DNA from: a virus
IMG/VR virus record: IMGVR_UViG_3300032257_000011
Direction: 5' to 3' (one strand)
DNA length: 64,000 nucleotides
Positions within the stretch are counted from its first letter, which is position 1; each line of letters begins with the position of its first letter. This document shows, piece after piece, positions 40,626 to 64,000 of the stretch. The notes beneath the pieces are model-generated. The model was not told where the DNA came from and searched no databases. It was given only the letters and a program-made list of their open reading frames with translations. The position numbers and the translations under genes are program-made.

Positions 40626-40724
40626 TCCAGGCACTTTTGGTTTGATGTATTCACATGCGATAGTCTGATAGCGTATTGATGTATGAAGCGTTTTCATACA
40701 CAAACATCCTAATGGAGAAAAAAC

Positions 40725-41210
40725 ATGTCAGACGAACAATCAGTTGAAACCACTGTCGCTCAGCCACTCACCACCGTCGCAGGTTTGCAGGCTTTTGTAG
40801 CAGACCTTTTCAATTCAGAACCCTCAGACCTTCCTGCTGGCGCTCGTGGCTATACCATCAAGGGTGGTTTCCGAGCAGTATCTACTCTTCGCAACACTCC
40901 TCTCAATACTCTTGTTGGTATGGGAGCATGTATCAACGATGCCATCGCTGGTCATATTGTTGAAGGAACCGAAGGCGCTCAAGATGGAATGCAGCTCGTA
41001 ATCAATCATGCTCAGAACGCTGTTACTGCTCAGTCCAATCAGGCGCAGTTCGATAGTTTCTACAGCATGGCTCAGCATCTCGGTTATGCAGATGACATCG
41101 GAGAGAATCCTTCGATTGAAGACATGACTGCTGTTGTGGACACTTTCCTTGTTGCTCAGCCGAAGCAGCAGAATTCTTGGGCGGAGCATCTCGCTGCTCA
41201 AGGGGCATAA
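40725..41210 (+). CDS. hypothetical protein
   Basis: GGAGAAAAAAC SD then ATG. Confidence 0.55.
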   Translation: MSDEQSVETTVAQPLTTVAGLQAFVADLFNSEPSDLPAGARGYTIKGGFRAVSTLRNTPLNTLVGMGACINDAIAGHIVEGTEGAQDGMQLVINHAQNAVTAQSNQAQFDSFYSMAQHLGYADDIGENPSIEDMTAVVDTFLVAQPKQQNSWAEHLAAQGA

Positions 41211-41277
41211 AAACTCCTCCATGTAAGGCATTGGCTCATCCTCGTGGATGGGCCTTTGTCTTTTAAGGCACTCTAGT

Positions 41278-41332
41278 ATTCACATGCTGTATTCTTTTCT
41301 CGCGGAATAATAGAAACCCTTACACTGAATGG
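41278..41332 (+). promoter_or_regulatory. composite TATTCACATGCTGTA / TTTTCTCGCGGAATAA / CTTACACTGAATGG
   Basis: same three-part block repeated at 42883-42937. Confidence 0.55.
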
Positions 41333-41339
41333 AGACCAG

Positions 41340-41594
41340 ATGACCGTAGACCTACACGAAGAACTCAAGAAGCAAAAGAAAATCGCTATGATTTGGGGTA
41401 TTGATGATGTTCTCGCTGTTCGAGATGACCTCAATGATGACCAATGTTGGCAAGTATTACAAAGAATTGAAAACAGAGCTGACTGCACTCAAGGCATTAC
41501 ATGGGACACTATTGATATGTATTGCGACGAACTCTTCCCTAAGTCTGATGAAGAAGATGGCGAGACTACCGTTCCAAAAGGATGGGTGGTCTAA
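41340..41594 (+). CDS. hypothetical small acidic protein
   Basis: ORF track. Confidence 0.45.
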   Translation: MTVDLHEELKKQKKIAMIWGIDDVLAVRDDLNDDQCWQVLQRIENRADCTQGITWDTIDMYCDELFPKSDEEDGETTVPKGWVV

Positions 41595-41863
41595 TAGTGA
41601 ACGACTATTTTACTCTACCTCAAGAAGTCTGGGATGAAAAAGAATGTCTCAAGATATCTCGAAGGAGACAAAAAGACAGCTATGGAAGCAAGTCTCCTGT
41701 TGGCTACTTCGGAGGCACTTGGGGTAAAACCCGATACAATGGTGGATGTATTCGTGATGGAAAGTGGTACAAAGGAGAAATACGTAATCTCCCCATAATC
41801 CCTGATGGATTCACGATTTACCAAATGCCTGCTTGGGGTTGGTCGATAAAAAAGAATGACTGA
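41582..41863 (+). CDS. hypothetical small protein
   Basis: ORF track. Confidence 0.4.
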   Translation: MGGLIVNDYFTLPQEVWDEKECLKISRRRQKDSYGSKSPVGYFGGTWGKTRYNGGCIRDGKWYKGEIRNLPIIPDGFTIYQMPAWGWSIKKND

Positions 41864-42122
41864 AATTATGACAGAGATACGTCGTGTCGCCTCATTGTTC
41901 GAGGAGCTGGATCTTACTGAGGATCTAGAGAGAATTGAGCTGATGGAAGAAATAGGCTCAAAACCTATTGAGCTGCTCATTGCCTTCATTCAGGTCTTAG
42001 AACCCTTTCGAGCTGCCAAACCTGAATCCTACGAGTTATTCAAGGGCGAAATAGGCACTTTATCTGTCTTCTTAGAGGGCAAGATGAAATTCATATGGGA
42101 ACGCATATTCACATGCAGATGA
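41856..42122 (+). CDS. hypothetical small protein
   Basis: ORF track. Confidence 0.4.
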   Translation: MTEIMTEIRRVASLFEELDLTEDLERIELMEEIGSKPIELLIAFIQVLEPFRAAKPESYELFKGEIGTLSVFLEGKMKFIWERIFTCR

Positions 42123-42140
42123 ATTGGCCTGTCGAGAAGT

Positions 42141-42356
42141 ATGACAACAACACCAAATAATCTCGTGGGTAGAACCATTAAATCGGTACGAATGCAGACT
42201 CCAGAAGAAATGGAAGCTTTGGATTGGTATACGCCTGCTGTTATTCTTGAACTCGATGATGGAACTCAGCTTTTCCCATCCAAGGACTATGAAGGTAATA
42301 ATGGCGGAGCGCTCTTTGGTAAAGGAACTGATGGCTCAGATTTTACGATTGCATAA
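42141..42356 (+). CDS. hypothetical small protein
   Basis: preceded by ATTCACATGCAGATGAATTGGCCTGTCGAG. Confidence 0.4.
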   Translation: MTTTPNNLVGRTIKSVRMQTPEEMEALDWYTPAVILELDDGTQLFPSKDYEGNNGGALFGKGTDGSDFTIA

Positions 42357-42407
42357 TCACATGCGGGTGAATTGACCTGTCGAGTATCATACACTTAGGA
42401 GACAAAC

Positions 42408-42884
42408 ATGCCTTGTACATACGATGGGCCTACTGGTCCAACAGCAGAACAACGAGAAAAAGCACGAGTAGTCGCAATACTTGATAGCCTCTGTCCTCAA
42501 ATGAATCTTGCCATTCCTGACTCAAGACGCTGCCTTGATGACCTTACTGCTCATCTTTGCGACCTTTGTACTAACATGGGAAATGTTGAGCGAAATCGCT
42601 TGATGTACGATGGTCGGAACAAAGATGCTCGACGCTTAGCTGATTGGTGGGAAGAGCATCAGGAAGCTGACGCTGCAAAGGCGGCAAGAGAAGAAATCAA
42701 GAAAATTCCCAATCAGGCTCTAAATCTTTTGGCGGATGCTTTGAAGGGCTGGAGTGTCGATTGTTTGGTTTCCCATCCAGGCACCATCGCTAATCCCACA
42801 CAGAAAGATATGATGCTTGTATTTGAAACTGATGGATATACTGTTTCTCTCAATAGCAAAGACTTGTCAATCAAGCCTACCTGA
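42408..42884 (+). CDS. hypothetical protein
   Basis: preceded by AATCACATGCGGGTGAATTGACCTGTCGAG. Confidence 0.5.
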   Translation: MPCTYDGPTGPTAEQREKARVVAILDSLCPQMNLAIPDSRRCLDDLTAHLCDLCTNMGNVERNRLMYDGRNKDARRLADWWEEHQEADAAKAAREEIKKIPNQALNLLADALKGWSVDCLVSHPGTIANPTQKDMMLVFETDGYTVSLNSKDLSIKPT

Positions 42885-42944
42885 TTCACATGCTGTATTC
42901 TTTTCTCGCGGAATAAGGAATCCCTTACACTGAATGGAAAAGAT

Positions 42945-43781
42945 ATGAGCGTAGGCGAAAAACCAATTACCGACATCAACAACTACAACTCCGAGATGGC
43001 GAAGAGCCTCATCGACAAAATCTTCTTCATGGATAAGATTGAAGCAGACCTAATCCTTGACATCGGATGCGCAGATGGCACTCTCATCAAATTCCTCTCG
43101 AACATCTTTCCAGACCATCAGTATGTAGGCTACGACGCTGACGCTGAAATGATTAGGGAAGCCAACAATGGCTACGAAAGCCCGAATGTCACGTTTGATG
43201 CCAACATCGACGTAATTCGTGGAATCATTACCAAGGCACAATCCGAAGGTAAGCGAGTGTGCATTGTTCTCAGCAGCATGATTCATGAGGTCTATTCATA
43301 TGGACGAGGACAGACGGATTCGTTTTGGGAGATGGTGTGGGGATTCGAGCCTGATTATGTCGCCATCCGAGATATGATGGTCAGCTCCAAGACCAGCCGT
43401 CCAGCTCCAGTCCGCAACGCAATGCGTATCCGCCAGATTTACGGAAGAGACATTCCCAATGGTGCTGAAATGATTGCACAGCACGAGTCGATTTGGGGTT
43501 CATTGGAAGAGAATTGGTCTCTGACGCACTTCCTTCTCAAGTACCGATACGTTGGAAATTGGGAGAGAGAAGTTCACGAGAACTACTTGCCTCTCAATGT
43601 TGAACAGATGATGGGTGTCATTCCATCGAGTTACGACATGCAGTATTTTGACCATTTTGTATTGCCATTCATTTCTGGCGCTGCTTGGAGGGACTTCTAT
43701 ATCCAGATGCAGGATCCCACTCATGTCAAGATGATTTTGCGGAAAGTCAGAAAAACTCCAAGAAAATTGGACTACAACTAA
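42945..43781 (+). CDS. class I SAM-dependent methyltransferase
   Basis: motif I ILDIGCADGT. Confidence 0.6.
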   Translation: MSVGEKPITDINNYNSEMAKSLIDKIFFMDKIEADLILDIGCADGTLIKFLSNIFPDHQYVGYDADAEMIREANNGYESPNVTFDANIDVIRGIITKAQSEGKRVCIVLSSMIHEVYSYGRGQTDSFWEMVWGFEPDYVAIRDMMVSSKTSRPAPVRNAMRIRQIYGRDIPNGAEMIAQHESIWGSLEENWSLTHFLLKYRYVGNWEREVHENYLPLNVEQMMGVIPSSYDMQYFDHFVLPFISGAAWRDFYIQMQDPTHVKMILRKVRKTPRKLDYN

Positions 43782-43825
43782 ACAGGCACTCATTCACATG
43801 CAGTCAACCAAGAAGGACAATAATT

Positions 43826-44281
43826 ATGGAAGGCAAACTAACAGAAATTGAACTTGGGATTGATATCAAAAAAGCCTCCGAAGATGGAGAGACCTTTGAC
43901 CTCAAAGACTTTACAGAAGAAAGATTCGACCAAGCTCTACTAAACGCTATCACTGATTCGGATGCTGGAGAACTGTCATATACATTGTCTGACTTTAGTA
44001 TTCGTGAAGAAAAAATTAAAGAACCACTCAAGCTCATTGCTTATGCAGACGGGCGCATCAAGTTTGAAGGCTGGGAAGATTGGTTCATCCATTCATACAT
44101 TGCAATGCTTGATTATCAGAATCCAAAACTTGATCCATGCGATAGAAAAACAAGACTTCAGCTTTTTCAGCAAGCAGATAAGATTGTCAAAGATCCTGAC
44201 CGCCAACAAGAAATCAAAATTGTTATTAAACAGTCATTTTGGAAGTCGTTTCCAAAAGCAGTATTCAATTGGGAGAACTGA
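43826..44281 (+). CDS. hypothetical protein
   Basis: motif ATTCACATGCAGT at 43792 then ATG. Confidence 0.5.
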   Translation: MEGKLTEIELGIDIKKASEDGETFDLKDFTEERFDQALLNAITDSDAGELSYTLSDFSIREEKIKEPLKLIAYADGRIKFEGWEDWFIHSYIAMLDYQNPKLDPCDRKTRLQLFQQADKIVKDPDRQQEIKIVIKQSFWKSFPKAVFNWEN

Positions 44282-44283
44282 TA

Positions 44284-44661: not shown

Positions 44662-44675
44662 TTCACATGCGGTAA
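44661..44675 (+). promoter_or_regulatory. ATTCACATGCGGTAA motif
   Basis: TGA stop of upstream gene is part of the motif. Confidence 0.55.
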
Positions 44676-44781
44676 CTTGTTTATATCAGACACTATGAAA
44701 ACTCTATCGCTTACAAAAGTATGTCGCATATCTTGAGGATAGCGACTTTTCACATGTGATAAAAGATTAAGGCAAAACACA

Positions 44782-45138
44782 ATGACAAACACACATGATC
44801 CAGAAATGTTTGAAAGAGTTCGTGCTATACGGGACATTTTTTATGCAAATATAAGCGAACCTGTTGCAATTGCAGGCGATGAAGGTTATTTCATTGGAGA
44901 AGGTATTCTTTTTGATAAAGATATATTTGCTGAAACAACGAGAAAAGAACATTATCCTGAGCCTATTTTCACTCTTTGGGGAGAAGGTTGCGTTACAACA
45001 AACTTTCAAGATGATGTAGAATGTCTCGATATAATAGACACAGAAGCCAAAAATATAAATCACCTTGCTAAACAAAATAAAGTTATGTTTGCATGGGAAG
45101 GGAATTATATTCAAACACCATTGATTCACATGCAGTAA
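44782..45138 (+). CDS. hypothetical protein
   Basis: ORF track. Confidence 0.5.
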   Translation: MTNTHDPEMFERVRAIRDIFYANISEPVAIAGDEGYFIGEGILFDKDIFAETTRKEHYPEPIFTLWGEGCVTTNFQDDVECLDIIDTEAKNINHLAKQNKVMFAWEGNYIQTPLIHMQ

Positions 45139-45157
45139 TCTCTTGATATCAGACACT

Positions 45158-45436
45158 ATGAGTAACCTAACCAAGAGAAAACAAACATCTGCGCCAGCTC
45201 GAACCGGAGAACGCTATCTACACGGATTTACCGTTACTGGAAGCGTTGGCTCGAACTACAAGATTAGTTTCGATACTGCTCGCATGTGTTGGATTTGTTC
45301 TTGCCGAGGATGTATCGGTCATCAGAAAACATGTAAGCATCTAAGGGCTTGCGGTCTTATTGGCCCCGAGAACTTGGGACAGAAACTACCAACCCAGAAC
45401 CAAGCAGACCGAGCCAAACAATTAGGAGAATATTAA
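45158..45436 (+). CDS. SWIM-type zinc-finger protein
   Basis: CWICSCRGCIGHQKTCKHL = CxCxnCxH. Confidence 0.5.
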   Translation: MSNLTKRKQTSAPARTGERYLHGFTVTGSVGSNYKISFDTARMCWICSCRGCIGHQKTCKHLRACGLIGPENLGQKLPTQNQADRAKQLGEY

Positions 45437-46336: not shown

Positions 46337-46570
46337 ATGTCAGAAAATGACACGAATGAAGCACGAGTCCCTAAGCCCTTCTTTGAGCAGATCAACAGCT
46401 CGAACCTACTCATCCAAGTCAATCCTAAAATGGCTCAAGAAATCTCAGACATCATTATTGAGGGATTTGAAGATGGAGACTCTGGCGCAGTATGGGCATT
46501 TGCCAAGCAGCTTGAAGCATTCTCCAAAAGAGATTCACATGCTGAAACTCCTGAGTATCAATCAGCATGA
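46337..46570 (+). CDS. hypothetical small protein
   Basis: GGAGAAAAAC SD. Confidence 0.4.
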   Translation: MSENDTNEARVPKPFFEQINSSNLLIQVNPKMAQEISDIIIEGFEDGDSGAVWAFAKQLEAFSKRDSHAETPEYQSA

Positions 46571-46815
46571 AAGAACAGCACTACATTCAAATTGTACATG
46601 GCGGAACAGACCCATTACTGATTGGGCCATTCGACACAACAGATGAGCAGATGGTGAAGGCAAGGGAATACTTTGTCAGCGACGAATTCCATGAAGATTA
46701 TGATGGTATCTTTGGGATTGACACTGATTCAAATGGAAAGCTCTCAGTGTGGTCGTTCTCTCAAGATACAACAGACCAGTGGGCCGAAGAACATCGTGAG
46801 CAGGTGAAAGGCTAA
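46567..46815 (+). CDS. hypothetical small protein
   Basis: ATGA overlap. Confidence 0.45.
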   Translation: MKEQHYIQIVHGGTDPLLIGPFDTTDEQMVKAREYFVSDEFHEDYDGIFGIDTDSNGKLSVWSFSQDTTDQWAEEHREQVKG

Positions 46816-46833: not shown

Positions 46834-47478
46834 ATGATTGATAAGCAAATTATTATGGATGCCCTCGCTCCGTTCCCGTCAGCTCCCATCAATTCAGTAA
46901 GGGCTGTCATGGCTAAAGCTGAAGAGGCGATGGACACGGCTCTAAAGATTGTTGATGGTGGGAAGATAGTCCCATTGACATTCTTCATCCATACTCAGGG
47001 CGATGAGGCAATGAGATTTTTGCCTTCTGAGATTCCACGAGACCTCATAGCTCCCATTGTTTTGTCTGTCGCTAAGTCCAACGAAGGAGCCTCAGCTCTT
47101 ATTCATGTCTCCGAGGCATGGGCCTTGAGAACCGAAGGCACTTTGAAAGTGGCAACTCCTGAAGCAAGAGAATGGGTTGCGTCAGGACAGTCGATTCAAG
47201 ATCATCCGGATGCCATAGAGATTGTAATGGTCAATGCGAGTTGTCAAGTCGGAGGTTTCGGCCAATACAATTATTGCGGCACAGCGATGATTAAGAATGC
47301 CAATGGCGCTCGTAGGCTAGATCCTGCTAAGTGGTTCGTTGCTGATGAGATGAGCGGAGCGCTCGTGATGCCTGTCGAGGAAATGCTTACTACTATTGAA
47401 GATGCAGACTTTTTGCGCGAGGAAATGAATAAGCCACGAGACGGCACATATTCGGACGCTGCCAACGACTGGGGATAA
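46834..47478 (+). CDS. hypothetical protein
   Basis: preceded by CCTTACACTGAATGG leader (46818-46831). Confidence 0.55.
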   Translation: MIDKQIIMDALAPFPSAPINSVRAVMAKAEEAMDTALKIVDGGKIVPLTFFIHTQGDEAMRFLPSEIPRDLIAPIVLSVAKSNEGASALIHVSEAWALRTEGTLKVATPEAREWVASGQSIQDHPDAIEIVMVNASCQVGGFGQYNYCGTAMIKNANGARRLDPAKWFVADEMSGALVMPVEEMLTTIEDADFLREEMNKPRDGTYSDAANDWG

Positions 47479-47527
47479 ATCCCAGGCACTCTACAATAGA
47501 TCGGTGCTAGGCATTGTTATTCGTTTT

Positions 47528-47544
47528 ATTCACATGCGGTAAAT
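47528..47544 (+). promoter_or_regulatory. TATTCACATGCGGTAAA motif
   Basis: AGATCGGTGCT at 47498 upstream. Confidence 0.55.
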
Positions 47545-47581
47545 GATTCGTGTTGAAGGGTAACAGAAAAGGAAACAAACA

Positions 47582-48289: not shown

Positions 48290-48408
48290 ATCCTTTTCAG
48301 TTGGGGGCTACTTATCATCGAAAAGATGAGGTAGCCCCTTGCAGGTGATAATAGATCGGTGCATAATAGAGTGAACAAGATCAATACCAATTCCCCGAAA
48401 GGCGAGCA

Positions 48409-49128: not shown

Positions 49129-49168
49129 GGCACACGGTTTAGGCCGTGTGTTTTCACATGCGGTAAAG
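49129..49168 (+). promoter_or_regulatory. terminator hairpin (cacacgg…ccgtgtg) fused to TTTTCACATGCGGTAAAG
   Basis: read directly. Confidence 0.55.
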
Positions 49169-49185
49169 AGATACAATCATTGAAT

Positions 49186-49512
49186 ATGAATAATCCAACA
49201 ATAAAGCATAAGATTTCCAAATTTGTACATTTTTTAATGACAATGACGGCAATCATTATACTTACAGGACTCTTTTTCTATTTGATATCAATGGGAAATG
49301 AAGCAGTCAATATAGGGGACTCATCCTATCTACCCTCCCCGACCCTGCACGAGATAAATACCTATGCACAGCGATTAAATAAACCACCGCTCGATAAATT
49401 GCCTTGGGAAGATAAGCAGGGTCGAAACATCTACGAAGTGCGACAAGAAGAATTGGCAACCATTGGCCTGGCCGCTTACCAAGCAAAGTACGCAGAAGAA
49501 CAGGAATACTAA
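49186..49512 (+). CDS. membrane-anchored hypothetical protein
   Basis: ATG 6 nt inside the track's TTG start. Confidence 0.45.
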   Translation: MNNPTIKHKISKFVHFLMTMTAIIILTGLFFYLISMGNEAVNIGDSSYLPSPTLHEINTYAQRLNKPPLDKLPWEDKQGRNIYEVRQEELATIGLAAYQAKYAEEQEY

Positions 49513-49751
49513 TGGCTAAAGAAATCAAAGTAGGAGACAGGGTTCAGTGGACAAGCCAAGGAGTCGCTCAATTTTCTGAGCCTCGAATTGTTACGGCTAT
49601 CTATGATTATCCAGGCACTGAGACTTTTCCCGCAGGCAAATATGCCCTTGTTGAAGGTACTTCTACGGGCTTACCTATCTCAGAACTCGAAGTAATAAAG
49701 ACTTCTCTATGGGAACTCTTTTCACATGCAGTAAAGAAATGGAATCAATGA
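49512..49751 (+). CDS. hypothetical small protein
   Basis: 3' end reads through TTTTCACATGCAGTAAAG (49719-49736). Confidence 0.45.
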   Translation: MAKEIKVGDRVQWTSQGVAQFSEPRIVTAIYDYPGTETFPAGKYALVEGTSTGLPISELEVIKTSLWELFSHAVKKWNQ

Positions 49752-49753
49752 AT

Positions 49754-50071
49754 ATGAATAACATCGGAACAGTAATCAAAAATCGTCGAGGAAACCGTAC
49801 CCTTACTGAAGTCTCGCAAGCTACAGGAATCTCTATGGCAATGCTTAGCCTCATTGAACAAGGCAAGCGGAATCCTTCTGAGTCAAGCCTTATAGCTTTG
49901 GCTGAGTTCTTTGAGACTACTTCATTCAATCTTCGCTTTGAGGTTGAGCATGGAGTCTCATGGGAAGCCTTTGGAGCAAGGCTTGTAACTATTGCTCGTG
50001 GAGCTGGCCCTAATAGGATTAGGAATCAAATCAATACGCTTTGGAATAATCCAAGTCTGGCATCTGTCTGA
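49754..50071 (+). CDS. XRE-family helix-turn-helix transcriptional regulator
   Basis: LTEVSQATGISMAMLSLIEQGKRNPS = Cro/C1-type HTH. Confidence 0.6.
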   Translation: MNNIGTVIKNRRGNRTLTEVSQATGISMAMLSLIEQGKRNPSESSLIALAEFFETTSFNLRFEVEHGVSWEAFGARLVTIARGAGPNRIRNQINTLWNNPSLASV

Positions 50072-50561: not shown

Positions 50562-50688
50562 CCTTACACTGATTCATTCGGAGCAATACCCCTTGGACTT
50601 CAAACTTGGGGTATTTTTTTACGCGGAAATCAGGAAAGATCAGTGCAAAGAACGAACAGGTGAACTCATCGTGTGATACAATGGACGC

Positions 50689-51192: not shown

Positions 51193-51402
51193 TGGGTAAG
51201 TGCGCAGATATTGCCTACTCTGTCTAGTTTACTTATATTCACATGCAGTAAGCATACGAAGCCAATGATTGTAAGAATGGCATGTAGTCATTCAACCACC
51301 AGTAGGACATAGGTGGAACAATCTATAACGGCGGAGCCGTGAAAGCGCTAAGTTTGCGCAGAAGGTTTTAGTATGTGTCGTATTAAGAAAAATCGTGGCC
51401 GC

Positions 51403-52018: not shown

Positions 52019-52025
52019 GAAACAA

Positions 52026-52097
52026 GTCCCCGAGAGGGGGCTTTTTTATTCCGCGAGAAATAAAAGATCGGTGCAAAGAGGATTCACATGCAGTAAA
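52026..52097 (+). promoter_or_regulatory. full cassette: terminator GTCCCCGAGAGGGGGC+T6 / TTATTCCGCGAGAAATAA / AGATCGGTGCA / GATTCACATGCAGTAAA
   Basis: read directly. Confidence 0.65.
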
Positions 52098-52115
52098 TGG
52101 ATGAGATTGATAGAT

Positions 52116-52394
52116 ATGGAAAACTACTCAGTACCGACAGATAAAACAATGTCCCTCGATGAAGTCATTGAACGCCTTACCAAGATGCGAGATGACGGGC
52201 GCAAGGGAGACACTCCTGTAGGCGTTCAAATCCCCTTCCCCAATATTGGATGGTTCTATGTTCCACTCATCAATATCACGGATGATTCGGGACTGATGAC
52301 TCTCGTCCCAGACCTAGATGCTACCATTCATACACTCAAGGGCAAGGCTGGAGAACCTAGTTATAAGGGCGTTATCCCTGTGGATGAAGATTGA
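52116..52394 (+). CDS. hypothetical small protein
   Basis: in-frame ATG after motif. Confidence 0.45.
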   Translation: MENYSVPTDKTMSLDEVIERLTKMRDDGRKGDTPVGVQIPFPNIGWFYVPLINITDDSGLMTLVPDLDATIHTLKGKAGEPSYKGVIPVDED

Positions 52395-52741: not shown

Positions 52742-52759
52742 GATTCACATGCGGTAAAG
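52742..52759 (+). promoter_or_regulatory. GATTCACATGCGGTAAAG motif
   Basis: TGA of upstream gene inside motif. Confidence 0.55.
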
Positions 52760-52793
52760 TCTCAGCATCGAGGTATAACAAAAGGAGACAGAA

Positions 52794-53186: not shown

Positions 53187-53327
53187 GATGATGGTGGGCG
53201 TGTTGAAATAGGGAACTAAGCCACCCCTAGCAAATCCTGGATAAGGCAAGGCTAATAGAGCAAACCCCAGGCACCACCTTTTCACATGCGGTAAAATATT
53301 CCGAGCAAGGAATATAAGGAGAACAGA

Positions 53328-54060: not shown

Positions 54061-54118
54061 CCCCACGAGGGGCAGACCACAATAAGATCGGTGCAAGACT
54101 CCACTCACATGCCATGAA
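54061..54118 (+). promoter_or_regulatory. cassette: CCCCACGAGGGG hairpin / AGATCGGTGCA / ACTCACATGCCATGAA (divergent motif)
   Basis: read directly. Confidence 0.5.
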
Positions 54119-54136
54119 TAGCAAGGGTTATTGAAT

Positions 54137-54604
54137 ATGGAATATAACTTTGAATTGAAAATGCCAGATGCCGACTGGATGGACAGACTCCGAGAGAGAA
54201 GTTTTACGGCAGATACAGCCTTCCCCGATTCTCGTATGCAGAAACTCAAAATGAGAATGCTTGATGAGATTGGCGCAGCAGTTTGTATCAATGGATTTGA
54301 TGAAGATACTCCAGCCCTTATGATACGAGGGGATTTCTATCTCTCAGAGGATGCAGAGTTTCGCAAAGGCGAGAACTGTAGATGTCACGGAAACAGCGCA
54401 GCCATATGGAAAGAGGACGACGAACGATATTGCATTATGACCGGATACGCAATGTCTAACGATGCGGTATGGCGGCAACATTCATGGGTATGGGATAATG
54501 AGAATGAACGAATCATTGAAACCACAGAGGACAGGTTGCTCTACTATGGATTCAAGATGACCCACAAAGAATGTGTATATTTCCATGACATGAATGAGCA
54601 TTGA
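54137..54604 (+). CDS. hypothetical protein
   Basis: ATG 6 nt inside track TTG start. Confidence 0.5.
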   Translation: MEYNFELKMPDADWMDRLRERSFTADTAFPDSRMQKLKMRMLDEIGAAVCINGFDEDTPALMIRGDFYLSEDAEFRKGENCRCHGNSAAIWKEDDERYCIMTGYAMSNDAVWRQHSWVWDNENERIIETTEDRLLYYGFKMTHKECVYFHDMNEH

Positions 54605-54619
54605 TTCACATGCTGTAAA
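54603..54619 (+). promoter_or_regulatory. GATTCACATGCTGTAAA motif (TGA stop of the 54137 gene embedded)
   Basis: read directly. Confidence 0.55.
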
Positions 54620-54637
54620 CTCAGAGAGGCAGTAAGT

Positions 54638-54880
54638 ATGGATAACAAAGAAACACCTACCGTTCCGAATATGGAAGTAATGAAAGTTCACGGCTCAAGG
54701 GTCTGGATTTACGCAACCGTCGATGACCGTTATTTCAAGGTCAATCAAGATGATGAGGGGCATTGCATTATTAGAGAAATGGTTGTTCAGGACAAGTGGA
54801 TAGACCGTACTGAACCCGGCTTTGATACATTGGCTGAGGCAATCGTCAATCATGCAGACGCAGGCGATTATCTCAACTGA
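54638..54880 (+). CDS. hypothetical small protein
   Basis: ORF track. Confidence 0.45.
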   Translation: MDNKETPTVPNMEVMKVHGSRVWIYATVDDRYFKVNQDDEGHCIIREMVVQDKWIDRTEPGFDTLAEAIVNHADAGDYLN

Positions 54881-54915
54881 GTTTCACATGCAGTAAACTT
54901 TTGGAGTCATTGAAT

Positions 54916-55233
54916 ATGAAAACAGCATTCCTACCGTCTTTTGAAGTCTGCAATATCCACGGTCGAGAACTGGTCGTTGACCTGCTTCTCCTCGAAGCCG
55001 AGAGCGGGGATACTCAATGGAGTATGTTCATTCCAGGCACAATGACTGACATTTCCGAAGTCCACCTTGGAATCAACGAATGCGAATTCGATGAGAACGA
55101 GATGAATGGTTGGCTTGACCATATTGGTGGGCAAATGATGAACTTTCCATGCACTTGTCATGGGCCAACAACAAACCCAAGCGGCGAATGCGTTGGATGC
55201 GGTCGCCCTACAGCATGGAAAGAACCAGTATGA
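54916..55233 (+). CDS. hypothetical protein (C-terminal CxC…CxxC)
   Basis: GTTTCACATGCAGTAAA at 54881 plus CATTGAATATG leader. Confidence 0.45.
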   Translation: MKTAFLPSFEVCNIHGRELVVDLLLLEAESGDTQWSMFIPGTMTDISEVHLGINECEFDENEMNGWLDHIGGQMMNFPCTCHGPTTNPSGECVGCGRPTAWKEPV

Positions 55234-55421: not shown

Positions 55422-55468
55422 ATATTCACATGCAGCAATAGTCTATCATTGAATGGTAAGGAGATACA

Positions 55469-56489: not shown

Positions 56490-56521
56490 TTCACATGCGG
56501 TAAAGTCTTTACACTGAATGG
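56488..56521 (+). promoter_or_regulatory. GATTCACATGCGGTAAAG + TTACACTGAATGG leader
   Basis: read directly. Confidence 0.6.
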
Positions 56522-56543
56522 TAACAAGAGAGGCATTACAAGC

Positions 56544-56802: not shown

Positions 56803-57216
56803 ATGGAACACACAGAACTTATTGAAGCGTTACGAAACCCAGACCATCCGAACTATCGAGAGATAGCAGAGGAAGCCGCAGACATTTTGGAAAAGATGAA
56901 TGAAAAGCCACGAATTGATGTGGTATTGAATGAAGTCCTTGACCCAGCAGATGCGCCAGTCCCATCTTCTATTGAGGCTCATGCAGTCTTGGAAAAAGAT
57001 GGACTTGGAATCTCGATTGGTATCAAGGGTTATGGTCTTTGCGATATGGCAGATGGAGCAGGCGACCCAATCATCGTTGAATTCCATGACGGCAAACCAA
57101 GACTTGTTGTTTGGGCAGATATTGATGATGAGAATCCAACCCATATTATTGGATTGGAAGATGCCCTTGAATCAGCACGAACTCCAGATTCATTCCCGTT
57201 TGTTTCCTCCCCATAA
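56803..57216 (+). CDS. hypothetical acidic protein
   Basis: ORF track. Confidence 0.5.
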   Translation: MEHTELIEALRNPDHPNYREIAEEAADILEKMNEKPRIDVVLNEVLDPADAPVPSSIEAHAVLEKDGLGISIGIKGYGLCDMADGAGDPIIVEFHDGKPRLVVWADIDDENPTHIIGLEDALESARTPDSFPFVSSP

Positions 57217-57280
57217 GGGGAAAGACTGCAAGTAGATCGGTGCATATTCTTTTCGCGGAAAAATATTCACATGCGGTAAG
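57208..57280 (+). promoter_or_regulatory. full cassette: CCTCCCCATAAGGGGAAAG hairpin / AGATCGGTGCA / TTTTCGCGGAAAAA / TATTCACATGCGGTAAG
   Basis: read directly. Confidence 0.65.
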
Positions 57281-57318
57281 ACTCCAGAATCAGAACATAA
57301 CAAAGAAAGGTACTCACC

Positions 57319-57764: not shown

Positions 57765-57831
57765 GCCCCGCAAGGGGTTTTTTCTTACCCTTACACTGAT
57801 TCACATGCGGTAAAGTCCTATCACTGAATGG
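57765..57831 (+). promoter_or_regulatory. terminator GCCCCGCAAGGGG+T7 / CTTACACTGATTCACATGCGGTAAAG / TATCACTGAATGG
   Basis: read directly. Confidence 0.65.
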
Positions 57832-57850
57832 TAACAGAAAGGCAATAACC

Positions 57851-58516: not shown

Positions 58517-58674
58517 TTCACATGCGGTTCGGTTGAGGTATCGAGTATTGTAAGACAGAGAAAAAAGAACATTGTCAAGAACATAAGGAGAATTATCATG
58601 CGACTCTGAACTAACTTGATTGACGACCACGAGCCATCGTCCCGAACGCATAATCCCTAGGCTCAATATGGAAT

Positions 58675-58734
58675 GCCCCAAAAGGGGCTATTTTTACAGA
58701 TAGATCGGTGCAAAGAAGATTCACATGCGGTAAA
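58675..58734 (+). promoter_or_regulatory. terminator GCCCCAAAAGGGGC+T5 / AGATCGGTGCA / GATTCACATGCGGTAAA
   Basis: read directly. Confidence 0.65.
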
Positions 58735-58746
58735 CTCGATGGGTCA

Positions 58747-58983
58747 ATGATTATGAATAACTCGCCTATGAACGCCGTCGCAATATATGCTGTAACTCTC
58801 TCGTCTATGGGATACATGCCCGTACACGGATTGAAGCATGTTGAGGAAAGCAGACCTTGGGAATCCAAGTACGCTGGCAAATTCAGAAGTGGGAGTAGCA
58901 AGTGGGACTCCCGAAGAGCAAGCCCTAAGATGAATTGCACAGGCAATGGATATAAATTAAAGCGCAAAAAGAAAAGCCGCTGA
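58747..58983 (+). CDS. hypothetical small basic protein
   Basis: in-frame ATG after motif. Confidence 0.4.
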   Translation: MIMNNSPMNAVAIYAVTLSSMGYMPVHGLKHVEESRPWESKYAGKFRSGSSKWDSRRASPKMNCTGNGYKLKRKKKSR

Positions 58984-59021
58984 TTCACATGCAGTAAATC
59001 TATAGAGTCATACATTGAAAG
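58982..59021 (+). promoter_or_regulatory. GATTCACATGCAGTAAA…CATACATTGAAAGG leader
   Basis: read directly. Confidence 0.6.
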
Positions 59022-59032
59022 GAAATCAAACC

Positions 59033-59479: not shown

Positions 59480-59495
59480 TTCACATGCAGTAAAG
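59478..59495 (+). promoter_or_regulatory. GATTCACATGCAGTAAAG motif
   Basis: TGA stop embedded. Confidence 0.55.
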
Positions 59496-59528
59496 TTATA
59501 CCATTGAGTATTGAAAGGAAACAATACC

Positions 59529-59955: not shown

Positions 59956-60040
59956 CTCCCCGCTCGTTATGGGGGATTATTATACAATAAGATCGGTGCT
60001 AGGATTCTTTTCGCGGAAGAAAGATTCACATGCCGTAAAG
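59956..60040 (+). promoter_or_regulatory. cassette: CCCCGCTCGTTATGGGGG hairpin / AGATCGGTGCT / TTTTCGCGGAAGAAA / GATTCACATGCCGTAAAG
   Basis: read directly. Confidence 0.6.
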
Positions 60041-60067
60041 AAAAAGCATCATTGAATAACAAGGAGA
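60024..60067 (+). repeat. 44-bp promoter-leader block, copy 1 (identical to 60352-60395)
   Basis: ATTCACATGCCGTAAAGAAAAAGCATCATTGAATAACAAGGAGA. Confidence 0.8.
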
Positions 60068-60310: not shown

Positions 60311-60368
60311 ATCCCCAGCAATGGGGATTTTTTATTTCTCCGCGGAAAGATATTCACATGCCGTAAAG
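60311..60368 (+). promoter_or_regulatory. terminator ATCCCCAGCAATGGGGAT+T6 / TTCTCCGCGGAAAGA / TATTCACATGCCGTAAAG
   Basis: read directly. Confidence 0.65.
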
Positions 60369-60395
60369 AAAAAGCATCATTGAATAACAAGGAGA
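60352..60395 (+). repeat. 44-bp promoter-leader block, copy 2
   Basis: identical to 60024-60067. Confidence 0.8.
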
Positions 60396-60399
60396 ACAA

Positions 60400-60642: not shown

Positions 60643-60649
60643 AATCAAT

Positions 60650-60874: not shown

Positions 60875-60891
60875 TTCACATGCAGTAAAAC
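60874..60891 (+). promoter_or_regulatory. GATTCACATGCAGTAAAA motif
   Basis: TGA stop embedded. Confidence 0.55.
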
Positions 60892-60922
60892 TCCATCATC
60901 AGTAGATAACAAGGAGACCACG

Positions 60923-61264: not shown

Positions 61265-61321
61265 ATAAAATTTGGCCATAAAGAAAAACCACCCTTACTC
61301 AACGAGTTTTCTAAAGCCAAA

Positions 61322-61383
61322 GCCCTCGAAAGAGGGATAGTCCACAAGAAGATCGGTGCTATGTCATTCACATGCTGTAAAGA
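61322..61383 (+). promoter_or_regulatory. GCCCTCGAAAGAGGGAT hairpin / AGATCGGTGCT / CATTCACATGCTGTAAAG
   Basis: read directly. Confidence 0.6.
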
Positions 61384-61418
61384 ATCCGAGCCAATCAGTA
61401 TAACAAGGAGACAGACCC

Positions 61419-61772: not shown

Positions 61773-61787
61773 TTCACATGCAGTAAA
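61771..61787 (+). promoter_or_regulatory. GATTCACATGCAGTAAA motif
   Basis: TGA stop embedded. Confidence 0.55.
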
Positions 61788-61824
61788 CTTCTGTAGTCAT
61801 TGAGTAACAAAAGGAGACAAAACA

Positions 61825-62058
61825 ATGACATGCGAATGCACATGCAACCGACCAAAACGACAAGTCTACGGAACTTATACTCTCGCCAACGGATGCGATA
61901 TGAATTGGCTCCAATTCATCGAGTCCGCAGACACTCAAGAGGAAGCCGAAACCCTCGCAATGGAAATCGTACAAGGCCAGCACGCTGGAAACATCAAGAA
62001 GATTTGGATTACAGACAACGAATTCAATCCAAAGTATTCACATGCTGTAAACTCCTGA
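61825..62058 (+). CDS. hypothetical small protein
   Basis: ATG follows AAAAGGAGACAAAACA leader; preferred over overlapping Arg-rich 61800..62174 ORF. Confidence 0.5.
   Translation: MTCECTCNRPKRQVYGTYTLANGCDMNWLQFIESADTQEEAETLAMEIVQGQHAGNIKKIWITDNEFNPKYSHAVNS
62035..62051 (+). promoter_or_regulatory. TATTCACATGCTGTAAA motif overlapping C-terminal codons of the 61825 gene
   Basis: read directly. Confidence 0.55.
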
Positions 62059-62085
62059 GGTCATACACTGAAAGGAAGCAATACC

Positions 62086-62283: not shown

Positions 62284-62331
62284 CATTCACATGCTGATGT
62301 TCTATACTATCAATGGATGAAAGGGAACCAA

Positions 62332-62724
62332 ATGCCAGAAACAGAAACAATCAAGATTCTCAAATCAGTACAGGGCTGCATTGTTGAATTCGGTCCTCGA
62401 ACCGTATTCGTTCGCAGGAACCCAAATGAACAGGACCAAATGGCGACGATTCGCCTCATGACCACGAAAGGCCGAGAAACCAACGCCAGCCCATTGATTG
62501 AAGAAGATATGTCGCCGCTCGCATATCCATCCGAAGAATGTTATATAGATAGAGAGCCTTTGGGGATTGCAGGATTCGGAACCATCATTTTCTACTATGT
62601 CATGTTTGGGCTTCATTGTCCTGAGTTGGAAGATATGCCAGAGAATGTTAAATTGGAGGCCGAAGAATTCGCCTTCCGATTGCATCAAATGATTAAAAAT
62701 GGATTCGCTGACGGGGATTCATAA
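62332..62724 (+). CDS. hypothetical protein
   Basis: leader …GAAAGGGAACCAA then ATG. Confidence 0.5.
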   Translation: MPETETIKILKSVQGCIVEFGPRTVFVRRNPNEQDQMATIRLMTTKGRETNASPLIEEDMSPLAYPSEECYIDREPLGIAGFGTIIFYYVMFGLHCPELEDMPENVKLEAEEFAFRLHQMIKNGFADGDS

Positions 62725-62818
62725 CAAAAGAGTCCTACTCTACTCAATCTCCATCGGGATACCTTAATTGAGAGGTATAACCCGTCTACGGAGGGGGTAG
62801 GGCGCATTAACGACAGAA

Positions 62819-62873
62819 AGATCAGTGCATAGATTATTTCCGCGGAAAAGAAATCTATTCACATGCAGTAAAC
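62819..62873 (+). promoter_or_regulatory. AGATCAGTGCA (variant) / TTTCCGCGGAAAAG / TATTCACATGCAGTAAA
   Basis: read directly. Confidence 0.6.
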
Positions 62874-62906
62874 TGCCAGCGCCATACACTGAAAGGACAA
62901 CTAACG

Positions 62907-63113
62907 ATGACTCTATATGACAAACTCAAAGAAGCAGGCTGCCAAATGGATAACCACGAATCGGATCTCTATGTCGAGAGTACCGAAGTATCCCAAGCAA
63001 TCATCAAAGAATTCGGAATGAAAGGAAAACCATTTATCAGCCGAATTGATCAGGCTGTCTGGTTAGATATTCCGTTTCAGTTCCAACCATATTGGGACAG
63101 AAAACGAAAATAA
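62907..63113 (+). CDS. hypothetical small protein
   Basis: CATACACTGAAAGGACAACTAACG leader. Confidence 0.45.
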   Translation: MTLYDKLKEAGCQMDNHESDLYVESTEVSQAIIKEFGMKGKPFISRIDQAVWLDIPFQFQPYWDRKRK

Positions 63114-63115
63114 CA

Positions 63116-63132
63116 ATTCACATGCAGTAAAC
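63116..63132 (+). promoter_or_regulatory. AATTCACATGCAGTAAA motif
   Basis: read directly. Confidence 0.55.
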
Positions 63133-63178
63133 TTGCAGCGGCATACATTGTAAGAAACAAACCTTGAAAGGGAATACA

Positions 63179-63529
63179 ATGCCAAAGACACGAACCCCAC
63201 AACCACACCATGCCGAAGCAACCGCCGAGAAACTCCAGGCACTTTGCGATTGGCTACACCGAACCGCTAAGGCTCATTATGATGTTCATCTGACCAACCT
63301 CACGGCCCCAACCTTCCGGTTTACGGATGGGCCAAAGAATATTAAGATTCTTGTTCAAGAAAACGGAAAAGACCGAAGCGTATGGGGATTCGTTGAACGC
63401 TCATCAGGCTGCATCATGCGAGCAGCCGGATACAAAGCCCCAGACCCAGCACGACACGAACGGGGAAACATTCACCTCCCCGATGGATGGTCAAGCGAAA
63501 TCAACTACATCGGCCCAAATTACCGATAA
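63179..63529 (+). CDS. hypothetical protein
   Basis: leader CATACATTGTAAGAAACAAACCTTGAAAGGGAATACA then ATG. Confidence 0.5.
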   Translation: MPKTRTPQPHHAEATAEKLQALCDWLHRTAKAHYDVHLTNLTAPTFRFTDGPKNIKILVQENGKDRSVWGFVERSSGCIMRAAGYKAPDPARHERGNIHLPDGWSSEINYIGPNYR

Positions 63530-63533
63530 CAAA

Positions 63534-63613
63534 TCCCCGAAAGGGGCAAATGACCAAGTAGATCGGTGCAACGCACAAAGTCCACCCAAAAATAACTTAT
63601 TCACATGCCGTTG
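63534..63613 (+). promoter_or_regulatory. ATCCCCGAAAGGGGCA hairpin / AGATCGGTGCA / TATTCACATGCCGTTG
   Basis: read directly. Confidence 0.55.
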
Positions 63614-63649
63614 CCGCCTGCTGTCGAGGGATGAAAGGAAACCAAAACC

Positions 63650-63865
63650 ATGAAAAATCCAGAGCAACCACACGACGACTTCGAGACCCAAATCCAGTGC
63701 GAGGAATTTTATGAGGACTTGGATGCTCTCGACGAGGACTATCCTTATGAGGATGACGAGGGCGACCAGTTTATGCACGATGGCGAGGCCGATGCCGATG
63801 CCCTTGCCTCCGCCGGTTGGGGAACTGACGAGGACTACGGCGGCGACCACGAGGGAGCATGGTAA
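63650..63865 (+). CDS. highly acidic small protein
   Basis: ORF track; Asp/Glu-rich. Confidence 0.45.
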   Translation: MKNPEQPHDDFETQIQCEEFYEDLDALDEDYPYEDDEGDQFMHDGEADADALASAGWGTDEDYGGDHEGAW

Positions 63866-63873
63866 ACAATGAC

Positions 63874-63946
63874 CCCCAAAAGGGGGAACCAGCCCAATAG
63901 ATCGGTGCTACTCGTAGCCTCTACCCACTTTCACATGCTGTTTATA
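63874..63946 (+). promoter_or_regulatory. CCCCCAAAAGGGGG hairpin / AGATCGGTGCT / CTTTCACATGCTGTTTAT
   Basis: read directly. Confidence 0.55.
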
Positions 63947-64000
63947 TTACCTATCGAGGAGAGTAAGAAACACCAAACCTTGAAAGGGTAAAACACGATG

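Follow-up and report, generated by a model that had tools for sequence, protein, structure and literature searches.

Dense arrays of small genes, each led by its own promoter, are already known from T4-like, T5, SPO1 and phiKZ-type phages. In the T4-like phages, approximately 50 promoter/stem-loop motifs per genome, termed PeSL, border insertions and deletions of ORFan genes (Arbiol et al., 2010, PMC2839356; Comeau et al., 2014, PMC4122927). The early promoters of phiKZ, AR9 and PhiR1-37, jumbo phages with multisubunit RNA polymerases of their own, are AT-rich, approximately 10 nt in length and centred near −10 (PMC7598289), and no leaderless transcripts were seen when phiKZ was examined by differential RNA sequencing (PMC8244752). 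Here we describe a related arrangement in a 64,000-nt stretch of viral DNA (IMG/VR record IMGVR_UViG_3300032257_000011; hereafter the window), where a repeated element with the core TTCACATGC, which we call M1, stands before many small genes. The arrangement is known in kind and leaves the general picture of such arrays unchanged. What is new is the candidate promoter itself, a probable leaderless subclass, a set of companion boxes, and conservation with lineage variants across a clade of huge phages.

The window belongs to the genome of an uncultured phage, and this genome is very large. Two contigs of one metagenome assembly (117,561 and 55,369 bp) carry its sequence and overlap it end to end, and the genome is therefore at least approximately 173 kb in length. 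The window and the next 8.7 kb of the second contig make up a joined sequence of 72,724 nt, to which coordinates above 64000 refer; overall, approximately 82 kb of the genome was examined. Almost all genes of the window lie on the plus strand, and most of its 126 proteins have no family match in Pfam, NCBIfam or PHROGs, with few matches in the last of these. A megablast search with 24 kb of the window against 50,697 phage records gave zero nucleotide matches, and a tblastn search of phage records with the AAA_25/DnaB-like helicase encoded at 23922–25355 gave weak, partial RadA/DnaB-like matches only. No relative of this helicase was found in IMG/VR. Likewise, no IMG/VR contig was found to repeat the M1 box, each of 93 stretches holding a single chance match, and a literature search for the motif string returned primers only.

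The repeats described in the original prediction for this DNA are real. In the window we counted 44 copies of TTCACATGC (43 on the plus strand and one on the minus strand), compared with 0.80 expected from shuffled sequences, and the long form TTCACATGCRGTAA, allowing at most one mismatch, occurs 28 times, always on the plus strand, compared with 0.05 expected. The joined sequence holds 58 copies of M1 that span approximately 46 kb, from 23852 to about 69.5 kb, which is 5.5 kb beyond the window end. Copies are sparse up to 40.6 kb and dense thereafter, and the array ends where minus-strand genes start. The sparse ATTCACATGCGAT variants that had been noticed earlier were confirmed at 23852, 25453, 26979, 27678, 39502 and 40650. 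The description of the motif as genome-wide does not hold, as zero copies are present in positions 1–22 kb of the window or in a further 7.5 kb upstream of it. Similarly, the box had been placed before nearly every gene, but between 39.5 and 69.8 kb it is upstream of 49 of the 75 predicted genes, or about two thirds. The M1 region holds replication genes and, mainly, a 30-kb array of small genes with no assigned function. The 75 genes include one paralogous pair, and almost none has a family match. Given that the flanking open reading frames (ORFs) are unrelated, the conservation of M1 has been selected and is not left over from tandem duplication.

The box is often packed tightly against the gene before it. 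The preceding stop codon abuts M1 in 11 cases (always TGA) and lies within 9 nt in 10 more, and in a further seven the box overlaps the end of the ORF. These 28 of the 58 boxes have no terminator between gene and box, contrary to the proposal that every gene is an autonomous promoter–gene–terminator cassette. Such abutment and overlap are consistent with a signal at the DNA level in a tightly packed genome.

M1 is a rigid 40-bp element of the form ATTCACATGC-N-GTAAA-N8-RTCR-N5-T-R. If the first T of TTCACATGC is numbered 0, information in the alignment is confined to three places, namely −2 to +14 ((T/G)A-TTCACATGC-N-GTAA(A)), +23 to +26 (R-T-C-R) and +32 to +37 (T-R-W-N-A-A), and there is none further upstream. 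A conserved downstream block had been predicted, and it is present at fixed spacing: when shifts were allowed for the downstream half, 48 of 49 array copies stayed unshifted. Positions +23, +26 and +33 are purines in all 49 array copies; +25 is C in 40 of them, and +32 is T in 44 and C in three. We found no inverted or terminal repeats within M1. Predicted RNA folding of M1 regions gave a mean z of +0.24 over 50 sites, none of which fell below −2, and a scan with Rfam matched 13 tRNA genes (29.7–39.3 kb) and no RNA family at the M1 junctions. Most array boxes also contain a two-codon mini-ORF, ATG-CNG-TAA (for example at 60030–60038), which is probably incidental because lineage variants of the box lack it.

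The distance from the box to the next ORF-opening ATG defines two groups of genes. Thirteen ATGs lie at exactly +33, and a second group lies 44–70 nt from the box, mostly at +46 to +54. We call class 1 the genes with ATG at +33 and no Shine–Dalgarno (SD) sequence, and class 2 those whose ATG lies further on, behind a leader with the SD sequence AAGGAG(A); in class 2 the same leader, ATAACAAGGAGA, frequently runs from +33. The gene for an XRE protein at 49754 belongs to class 1, and its start codon is secure because the helix-turn-helix begins at the N-terminus of the protein. The purine at +33, preceded by T, is found in copies outside class 1 as well, and an SD-less ATG at +33 recurs in the related contigs L102, L104 and L124. 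Because a pyrimidine–purine step that keeps a constant spacing from a conserved block upstream looks like a transcription start, we infer from these patterns that transcription begins at +33. The main block TTCACATGCNGTAAA, which is of mixed composition, would then lie 19–33 nt upstream of the start (box at −33 to −19), and RTCR at −10 to −7. Class 1 genes would yield leaderless messages, and the leaders of class 2 would mostly be 13–21 nt in length, or little more than AAGGAGA. On the same sequence patterns, about a quarter of M1 genes appear to begin translation at the first base of the message.

Part of the box resembles a host promoter. TTCACA within M1 matches five of the six letters of TTGACA and is followed by a spacer of approximately 16 nt and then by n-R-T-C-R-W at −11 to −6. 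With the start at +33, TTCACA would occupy −33 to −28, which together with this spacer gives the geometry typical of the sigma family. However, the −10 block cannot serve host sigma70, because the −11 position is G as often as A (24 and 25 of 49 copies respectively) and the −7 position (+27) is rarely T (16 of 49); in addition, +37 is never T in array copies. The earlier statement that M1 has no sigma70 match is therefore correct for the −10 part but not for the upstream hexamer and the spacing. Only three array M1 sites pass a 9/12 sigma70 scan, and sigma70-consensus sites are not enriched in 44–64 kb (31, compared with 36.2 ± 5.7 expected). Elsewhere, in 21–41 kb, matches of 10/12 to 11/12 (TTGACA-16/17-TATACT) precede the tRNA clusters and a small number of other genes. 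As near-perfect host-type sites occur in these places and are not enriched in the array, the host consensus is ordinary, M1 is a separate class, and the array requires a signal of another kind. We also considered whether the sparse M1 copies are plain sigma70 promoters and rejected this, as the TTGACA-18-TAAGAT at 23839 is not conserved in L102.

The −10 part is one of the points at which M1 departs from PeSL. The two have much in common: PeSL is a composite of stop codon, promoter, stem-loop, SD sequence and start codon, present in approximately 50 copies per genome as against approximately 58 for M1. PeSL motifs are concentrated in hyperplastic, ORFan-rich regions, much as the M1 box precedes 49 of 75 small genes here, and they bound indels between close relatives, for which the present case offers a single example (strain variant L111, below). 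However, the PeSL promoter is identical to the Escherichia coli sigma70 consensus (−35, −10 and AT-rich upstream region), whereas the −10 part of M1 is not sigma70-like. The stem-loop is integral to each PeSL, whereas hairpins accompany about a third of M1 boxes and are paired with a separate box, AGATCGGTGC (M2). Furthermore, this phage is unrelated to the T4-like phages, as judged from the lack of megablast matches, the weak helicase tblastn results and the few PHROG matches.

Relatives of the helicase provided a second source of evidence. Four were found, with 81, 67, 52 and 51% identity. The 67% relative (L102 and L103; a 120-kb contig) carries exact TTCACATGC, GATCGGTGC and TTACACTG(AATGG) boxes at syntenic sites where the intergenic flanks have diverged, and its boxes include a class 1 pair with ATG at +33. 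In the lineage at approximately 50% identity (L104 and L124; G+C content 54–56%; contigs of 477–502 kb), M1 is replaced by yCCACATA(C/G) (CCACATAC), M2 by AGATGGGTGC, and a third box, M4 (described below), by GCACTGAT. This lineage nevertheless keeps RTCR at +23, the pyrimidine–purine step at +32/+33 and the SD-less ATG at +33. A more distant relative, L127 (G+C content 37.5%), has eight copies of GGACTAAACTTT at equivalent places with SD-less ATGs 31–33 nt on, and in another, L126, the box is TCCTGGTTC. The letters of the box thus vary by lineage and its geometry is constant, a pattern that suggests co-evolution with a phage-encoded reader, as in the T7 group. The methyltransferase gene at 42945 was also tried as a route to the array of a diverged relative, but the contigs obtained (L128 and L129) are unrelated phages that lack a repeated box.

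Promoters of the T7 type are contiguous elements of approximately 23 bp, running from −17 to +6, with approximately 10–17 copies per genome in T7, T3, SP6 and K11. M1 shares with them a repeated conserved core that undergoes lineage-specific base changes while its geometry is kept, as in the change from TTCACATGC to CCACATAC. It differs in that its conserved letters are spread over 40 bp with unconstrained gaps of 8 and 5 nt, and in its approximately 58 copies.

Alternative sigma factors, phage sigma factors and sigma appropriation offer another comparison. Promoters of the extracytoplasmic function (ECF) sigma-E type have the form GGAAC...GTC with a spacer of 16–17 nt, the MotA box of T4 lies at −30, and SPO1 has gp28 and gp34. 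Like such promoters, M1 has two blocks, one upstream near −33 and a short downstream one with TC near −10, followed 6–7 nt further on by the proposed start, and it forms a temporal class distinct from the host sigma70 promoters of the same genome. However, M1 matches none of their consensus motifs and has an additional conserved GTAAA at −23 to −19. In the ECF comparison, the spacing and the (A/G)TC(A/G) of M1 fit but the −35 letters do not, and no ECF-like protein is present among the window proteins. The −10 element of sigma-E promoters is G−12 T C−10, the C being the flipped base (PMC7598289). The GG/GC pair of sigma54 promoters (TGGCAC-N5-TTGC), 10 nt apart, is absent from M1, and where CAGGCAC and GGTGC adjoin, the gap from GG to GC is 13 nt and variable. 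Promoters of N4-type virion polymerase, which are short DNA hairpins (5–7 bp stem, 3-nt loop) just before the start, do not fit, as M1 has no inverted repeat or folding signal. Nor do integron cassettes, each of which ends in an attC site of imperfect inverted repeats (57–141 bp), as the junctions lack such a structure and no window protein matched an integrase family.

Considering these observations together, M1 probably represents a phage-specific promoter class that serves some 58 transcription units in a 46-kb part of the genome, in company with terminators and operators. The box would be the upstream half of a rigid 40-bp promoter that belongs to the phage itself. Its most likely reader would be the core RNA polymerase of the host, directed by a specificity factor that the phage encodes or modifies, with a phage RNA polymerase as the second possibility. 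The original prediction had raised recognition by a phage-specified factor, and this idea gains by inference from the coincidence of M1 with the gene strand, the rigid geometry down to a pyrimidine–purine step, the lack of sigma70 enrichment, the lineage-variable letters and the position of some copies behind terminators. At 25453, 26979, 57800 and 60353, M1 directly follows a strong T-run terminator without any other conserved element, and because it does so, the genes beyond must have their promoter there.

Several observations weigh against this interpretation. The start at +33 has two grounds only, the pyrimidine–purine pattern and the ATG spike. Searches of the 126 window proteins with Pfam, NCBIfam and PHROGs brought up no sigma factor, RNA polymerase subunit or other candidate reader, although the examined sequence covers approximately 82 kb of a genome of at least 173 kb. 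For the −10-like RTCR no reader is known; the most similar element is GTC in promoters of the sigma-E type (PMC7598289), and GGAAC, the ECF −35 sequence, is absent. In places a sparse copy overlaps a sigma70-like element, as with the conserved TGGTATACT at 25478–25486, and there M1 could be an operator or activator site. Finally, the mini-ORF and the abutting stop codons leave room for a role at the level of RNA or translation.

These points correspond to other explanations that we weighed. Recognition of M1 by a phage-encoded RNA polymerase, either virion-carried or made early and either multisubunit or single-subunit, is possible but doubtful. It would suit a huge genome of at least 173 kb with relatives on contigs of 477–502 kb, and the co-variation of M1 letters with lineage agrees with it. 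Jumbo phages that have their own polymerases carry a phage-specific motif upstream of early operons, and the RTCR-N5-T-R layout resembles the AR9 late consensus AACA-N6-T-A/G (PMC7598289). The likeness to these phages extends to a motif before early genes that sequence analysis can reveal and that differs between phages, and to very large genomes with many small early genes. However, known jumbo-phage early promoters are AT-rich, approximately 10 nt in length and near −10, whereas the strongest block of M1 is 16 nt in length, of mixed composition and approximately 20–33 nt upstream of the proposed start. In addition, a T7-type promoter is one unbroken element (−17 to +6), no polymerase gene or polymerase-like protein was seen in the approximately 82 kb examined, and TTCACA with a 16-nt spacer fits the geometry of sigma regions 4 and 2. 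A difference from phiKZ in particular is that it has no leaderless transcripts, whereas about a quarter of M1 genes have ATG at the proposed start. We consider it unlikely that M1 is instead the binding site of a phage activator or repressor beside weak host-type promoters, comparable to the T4 MotA box or to PhoB boxes that replace the −35 element. The box does occupy the place of a −35 substitute, sparse copies lie beside sigma70-like elements (TGGTATACT at 25478, conserved in three lineages, and TTGACT-17-TATACT at 27701), and the only sigma70-consensus promoter that is conserved is followed by the gene for p251, a conserved winged-helix protein. Against this, array copies lack TAnnnT at −10 and, with the base frequencies at +27 and +37 given above, offer nothing for host sigma70 to melt; moreover, rigid conservation reaches down to the start position.

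The tight packing of genes could also reflect a signal that acts in RNA, within polycistronic messages, either as a nuclease processing site or as a translational relay from stop codon through AUG-CNG-UAA to the AUG at +33. The stop codons that abut, closely precede or fall within M1 (11, 10 and seven cases), the mini-ORF of most array copies and the lack of SD sequences in class 1 would all be accommodated, but we judge the idea very unlikely. M1 also stands behind strong T-run terminators, where upstream transcription would seldom reach, and it has no RNA structure. In the C-N-G codon the middle base is free and the outer bases fixed, which is not a coding constraint; TAA is seldom replaced by TAG or TGA; and the lineage variants CCACATAC and GGACTAAACTTT have no mini-ORF. 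Recognition of DNA and initiation typically involve such features as the pyrimidine–purine step at +32/+33 and the purines found at +23 and +26. Least probable of all, and in our view highly improbable, is that the junctions are a mobile or recombination element, be it a repeat similar to a miniature inverted-repeat transposable element (MITE) or an integron-like attC site whose cassettes are moved by a recombinase. Small unrelated ORFs on one strand separated by a repeated sequence, and one cassette-sized indel bounded by the repeat (L111), are what such an element would give. Yet M1 has no inverted or terminal repeats, target duplications or folding potential, conservation is limited to some 40 bp that keep a fixed register with the start codon or SD sequence, and searches of the window proteins revealed neither an integrase nor a transposase. 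The indel is accounted for equally well by homologous recombination between promoter cores that are identical over 18 bp, and a second indel (345 bp at 29520 in L095) is not at the motif. The MITE alternative, which the original prediction had named as what would refute it, is rejected on the same grounds: 43 of 44 copies share one orientation, are locked to start codons and have unique flanks without terminal inverted repeats.

The proposal of a phage-specific promoter class bears on how genes are gained and lost. Because the same 16–40 bp junction flanks unrelated genes, promoter-plus-gene units should be exchangeable, and recombination between M1 copies would add or remove such units whole. 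A scan of metagenomes for M2, a gap and M1 returned 19 loci, among which L111 is the only true relative. This 3.8-kb contig from another sample is 98% identical to 62.6–66.5 kb of the joined sequence and carries an extra unit of 273 bp, consisting of an M1 box, a leader and a 74-codon ORF with a TGA stop codon, flanked on both sides by 18 identical M1 bases. By its sequence, the insertion is what recombination between promoter copies would give, in one case. L111 also has a replacement of approximately 1 kb, the right border of which is a hairpin-plus-M2 unit. In a second strain variant, L095 (10461–10805), the extra 345 bp encodes a 117-codon gene and lies at 29520, before the sigma70-type promoter of the first tRNA cluster, and is not bounded by M1. 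The suggestion that the junctions are recombination substrates is therefore borne out by one clean case, and the L095 indel does not conform to it.

If M1 is a promoter, it opens the transcription programme of a clade of huge phages, seen so far in metagenomes only, to study through a defined sequence. It would show which genes are expressed together as one temporal class, the first base of each message, and the existence of a specificity factor still to be discovered; co-variation with the lineage variants TTCACATGC, CCACATAC and GGACTAAACTTT would allow this reader to be identified. As a natural collection of leaderless phage messages, the genes that lack an SD sequence and have their ATG at a constant 33 nt would be unusually clean. 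The cassette indel shows a route by which ORFan genes may be gained and lost in such phages, and in annotation the box can be used to correct the start codons of small genes. We put forward only tentatively the broader view that phages of this clade, with genomes from approximately 170 to approximately 500 kb, drive much of their early or ORFan gene set from a private promoter class, read by a phage-encoded specificity factor or polymerase, that sets the transcription start on the A of the ATG in about a quarter of the genes. This would be a dedicated leaderless programme, defined by the promoter, in a bacterial virus whose other genes use strong SD sites, and the junctions would be the points where promoter-plus-gene units are swapped.

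The individual M1 sites, all given here as 40-bp intervals on the plus strand, show the range of arrangements. Among the sparse copies, ATTCACATGCGGTAAG at 23852–23891 belongs to a GAT/long-leader subclass, with the ATG of the helicase gene 70 nt after its first T, a syntenic copy at L102 7084 and a variant in L104/L124. ATTCACATGCGATTGG at 25453–25492 directly follows a terminator (25402–25433), has the conserved sequence TGGTATACTG downstream and an ATG 103 nt on, and corresponds to L102 8657 and L124 12439. ATTCACATGCGATAGG at 26979–27018 likewise follows a terminator (26918–26939), with ATG 102 nt on. ATTCACATGCGATGCG at 27678–27717 is followed by a sigma70-like TTGACT-17-TATACT (27701–27729). 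The class 1 copy at 29264–29303 lies within the 3′ end of the phosphoesterase gene; its ATG is at +33 with no SD sequence, and its ortholog at L102 15257 keeps both box and ATG at +33. A class 2 copy follows at 35839–35878 (ATG 57 nt on), then ATTCACATGCGATACT at 39502–39541 (79 nt) and ATTCACATGCGATAGT at 40650–40689 (75 nt).

Further class 1 copies, each with ATG at +33, are located at 42108–42147, 43793–43832, 45125–45164, 46534–46573, 49153–49192, 49721–49760 (the XRE/HTH_3 gene), 52083–52122, 54104–54143 (box variant CTCACATGC), 54605–54644 (where the TGA of the previous gene abuts the box), 54883–54922 and 58720–58759. The copy at 44662–44701 also has an ATG at +33, but this opens a 13-codon ORF only and the next gene is 120 nt on. 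Most of the remaining copies are class 2, including those at 41279–41318, whose leader contains a palindrome and an M4 box and whose ATG is 61 nt on, and at 42885–42924, which precedes the methyltransferase gene and is abutted by the TGA of the previous ORF. For other class 2 sites the ATG lies 53 nt on (47529–47568), 50 nt (52744–52783), 47 nt (53281–53320), 44 nt (55425–55464), 50 nt (60025–60064), 52 nt (61367–61406), 46 nt (62286–62325), 62 nt (63117–63156) and 50 nt (63600–63639). At 63930–63969 the ATG, 68 nt on, falls beyond the window end. The previous stop codon abuts the box at 58984–59023 and 59480–59519 (ATG 49 nt on in both), 60875–60914 (48 nt), 61773–61812 (52 nt) and 56490–56529, in the last of which the downstream half reads TTACACTGAATGG, and the box at 62037–62076 overlaps the end of the previous ORF. 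The box at 57266–57305 comes after a hairpin, M2 and a palindrome. Those at 57800–57839 and 60353–60392 directly follow terminators with no M2 (57765–57778, with a T-run, and 60311–60328, with a palindrome). The site of the additional cassette in L111 is the class 2 box at 62858–62897. Two further copies are unusual. That at 51238–51277 has a leader of approximately 100 nt before a lipoprotein-like gene at 51373, and that at 58517–58556 is followed by AAGGAGA, a three-codon ORF (ATG CGA CTC TGA) and, approximately 100 nt later, the terminator at 58675–58688; its product may be a short non-coding transcript or a regulatory leader.

Gene groups appear to be closed by G+C-rich hairpins, with or without a T-run, that are often followed by M2 11–15 nt later. 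Terminator-like hairpins are enriched in 44–64 kb (29, compared with 18.0 expected) and are found with M2 at approximately 20 junctions, accompanying about a third of M1 boxes. M2 was counted at 14 copies in the window, the number given earlier, or 16 if the two GATCAGTGC variants are included, and at 21 in the joined sequence; it never occurs on the minus strand. Hairpins do precede these boxes as predicted, with M2 11–15 nt after those that lack a T-run (12 cases) and 23–29 nt after those that have one. M2 had been placed between hairpin and promoter box, and only the first of these ties is close, as anything from 6 to 35 nt separates it from the next M1. Moreover, M2 is also found around a sigma70-type promoter at 22.9 kb (three copies) and before genes without M1 (two copies). 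It may be part of a termination signal for the enzyme that reads M1, or an operator.

On the plus strand, the trio of AGATCGGTGCA at 22867, 22907 and 22939 (22867–22949) surrounds a sigma70-consensus TTGACA-17-TAAGAT (22882–22910) that faces the winged-helix gene at 23087, and the same layout is present in L102 and L124. AGATCGGTGCT at 27637–27647 lies 30 nt before M1, and the M2 at 47498–47508 lies 12 nt after a hairpin (47469–47485) and 20 nt before M1. Two copies have no M1: at 48353–48363 the gene ATG is 56 nt on, and the variant AGATCAGTGCA at 50637–50647 is followed by the extended −10-like TGTGATACAAT. The same variant recurs at 62819–62829. The copy at 52065–52075 follows a terminator (52024–52043) and lies 7 nt before M1. 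Elsewhere M2 is 12 nt after a hairpin at 54085–54095 (hairpin 54061–54072), 57234–57244 (57208–57221) and 63899–63909 (63873–63886); 13 nt after a hairpin at 61350–61360 (61323–61336) and 63560–63570 (63535–63546, CCCCGAAAGGGG) and after the terminator 58675–58688 at 58702–58712; and 15 nt after a hairpin at 59990–60000 (59957–59975).

Palindromes of the TTCCGCGGAA type are also enriched, with 20 found and 7.3 expected when one mismatch is allowed. The earlier count of 12 stands but not their placement between M2 and the box, as only about five are beside M1 and the others are upstream of genes in the M1-free left part and of sigma70-type promoters. Those between M2 and M1 are TTTCGCGGAA at 57251–57260 and at 60009–60018 and TTCCGCGGAA at 62838–62847; CTCCGCGGAA at 60338–60347 lies between a terminator and M1, and another TTCCGCGGAA (22854–22863) is upstream of the M2 trio and its sigma70-type promoter. 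In the M1-free, low-G+C left part, TTCCGCGGAA at 15937, 17199 and 18218 stands directly upstream of genes. Given this distribution, the protein that binds the palindrome probably regulates more than the M1 class; it is probably a dimeric regulator of several promoter classes, with the palindromes as its operators.

M4 (TTACACTGAATGG), the letters of which make up the downstream half of some M1 copies, occurs 16 times compared with 1.2 expected. Seven M4 boxes of the form (T/A)ACACTG(A/T)(A/T)TGG form an array at 21960–22125 together with three inverted M1-like boxes (for example GCATGTGAA at 22076–22084), a layout shared with L102 and L124. The array is just past the 3′ end of the sole minus-strand gene, which encodes a Fic domain (22123–22839), and behind it are genes for the winged-helix protein, the helicase and a 444-aa protein. 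Its counterparts are at L102 3900–4170 and 5150–5320, part of which consists of three exact 33-bp tandem repeats, and at L124 8900–9000. This region may be a replication origin, and transcripts that run leftwards from the inverted boxes perhaps prime it.

The winged-helix protein, p251 (251 aa; 23087–23842), is encoded by the sole gene behind the conserved sigma70-consensus promoter at 22882–22910. Its 35 homologs are found only on large phage-like contigs, some of them 130–502 kb in length and from marine samples, and share an invariant LQRLGG..PYGLKLAQLGAC motif. A confident structure model of p251 (predicted local distance difference test score, pLDDT, of 88) gave only weak fold matches, to winged-helix domains of the ORC/Cdc6, TubR and OmpR kind. 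Because an iteron-like array and the helicase gene adjoin it, p251 as modelled looks like a replication initiator rather than a transcription factor. Sequence searches of PDB chains with the 251-, 474- and 444-aa proteins gave zero matches, as did a lenient Pfam search with ten mid-size window proteins, and a single-sequence structure model of the protein at 27081, which the original prediction had called a winged-helix protein, was unusable (pLDDT 39).

A further short sequence, CAGGCAC, occurs 30 times on the plus strand of the window and once on the minus strand, compared with 4.9 expected (for example at 25357, 26893, 27487, 43783 and 47483). In the joined sequence, 11 of its 34 copies lie 1–25 nt after the stop codon of a long ORF, and the copy after the helicase stop codon is kept even in L104, where M1 and M2 differ. 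CAGGCAC could be a gene-end or RNA 3′-end signal.

Sigma70 sites that match 10–11 of the 12 consensus letters, at 29554–29581, 37500–37527 and 37635–37662 (TTGACA-16-TATACT) and at 36643–36671 (TTGACT-17-AATAAT), precede the tRNA clusters and an ORF-poor stretch at 37.4–39.2 kb, which may encode an untranslated RNA, although Rfam gave no match there. The window also encodes HNH, TerD/TerB/VWA and metallophosphoesterase proteins, and RtcB and NUDIX genes lie directly upstream of it. G+C content rises from approximately 37% in positions 1–22000 to approximately 45% from 21–22 kb rightwards, and GC skew peaks at 0.29 at 20–22 kb; the left part (1–22000) has no M1, so that promoter content differs as well. 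The class I methyltransferase of 42945–43781 has more than 1000 homologs at 40–58% identity, many on contigs of 100–570 kb, and may be a widespread gene of huge phages. Finally, a 127-aa protein (20884–21264) matches many consecutive segments of L102 1–1900, which points to a family of small genes that has been tandemly expanded in L102.

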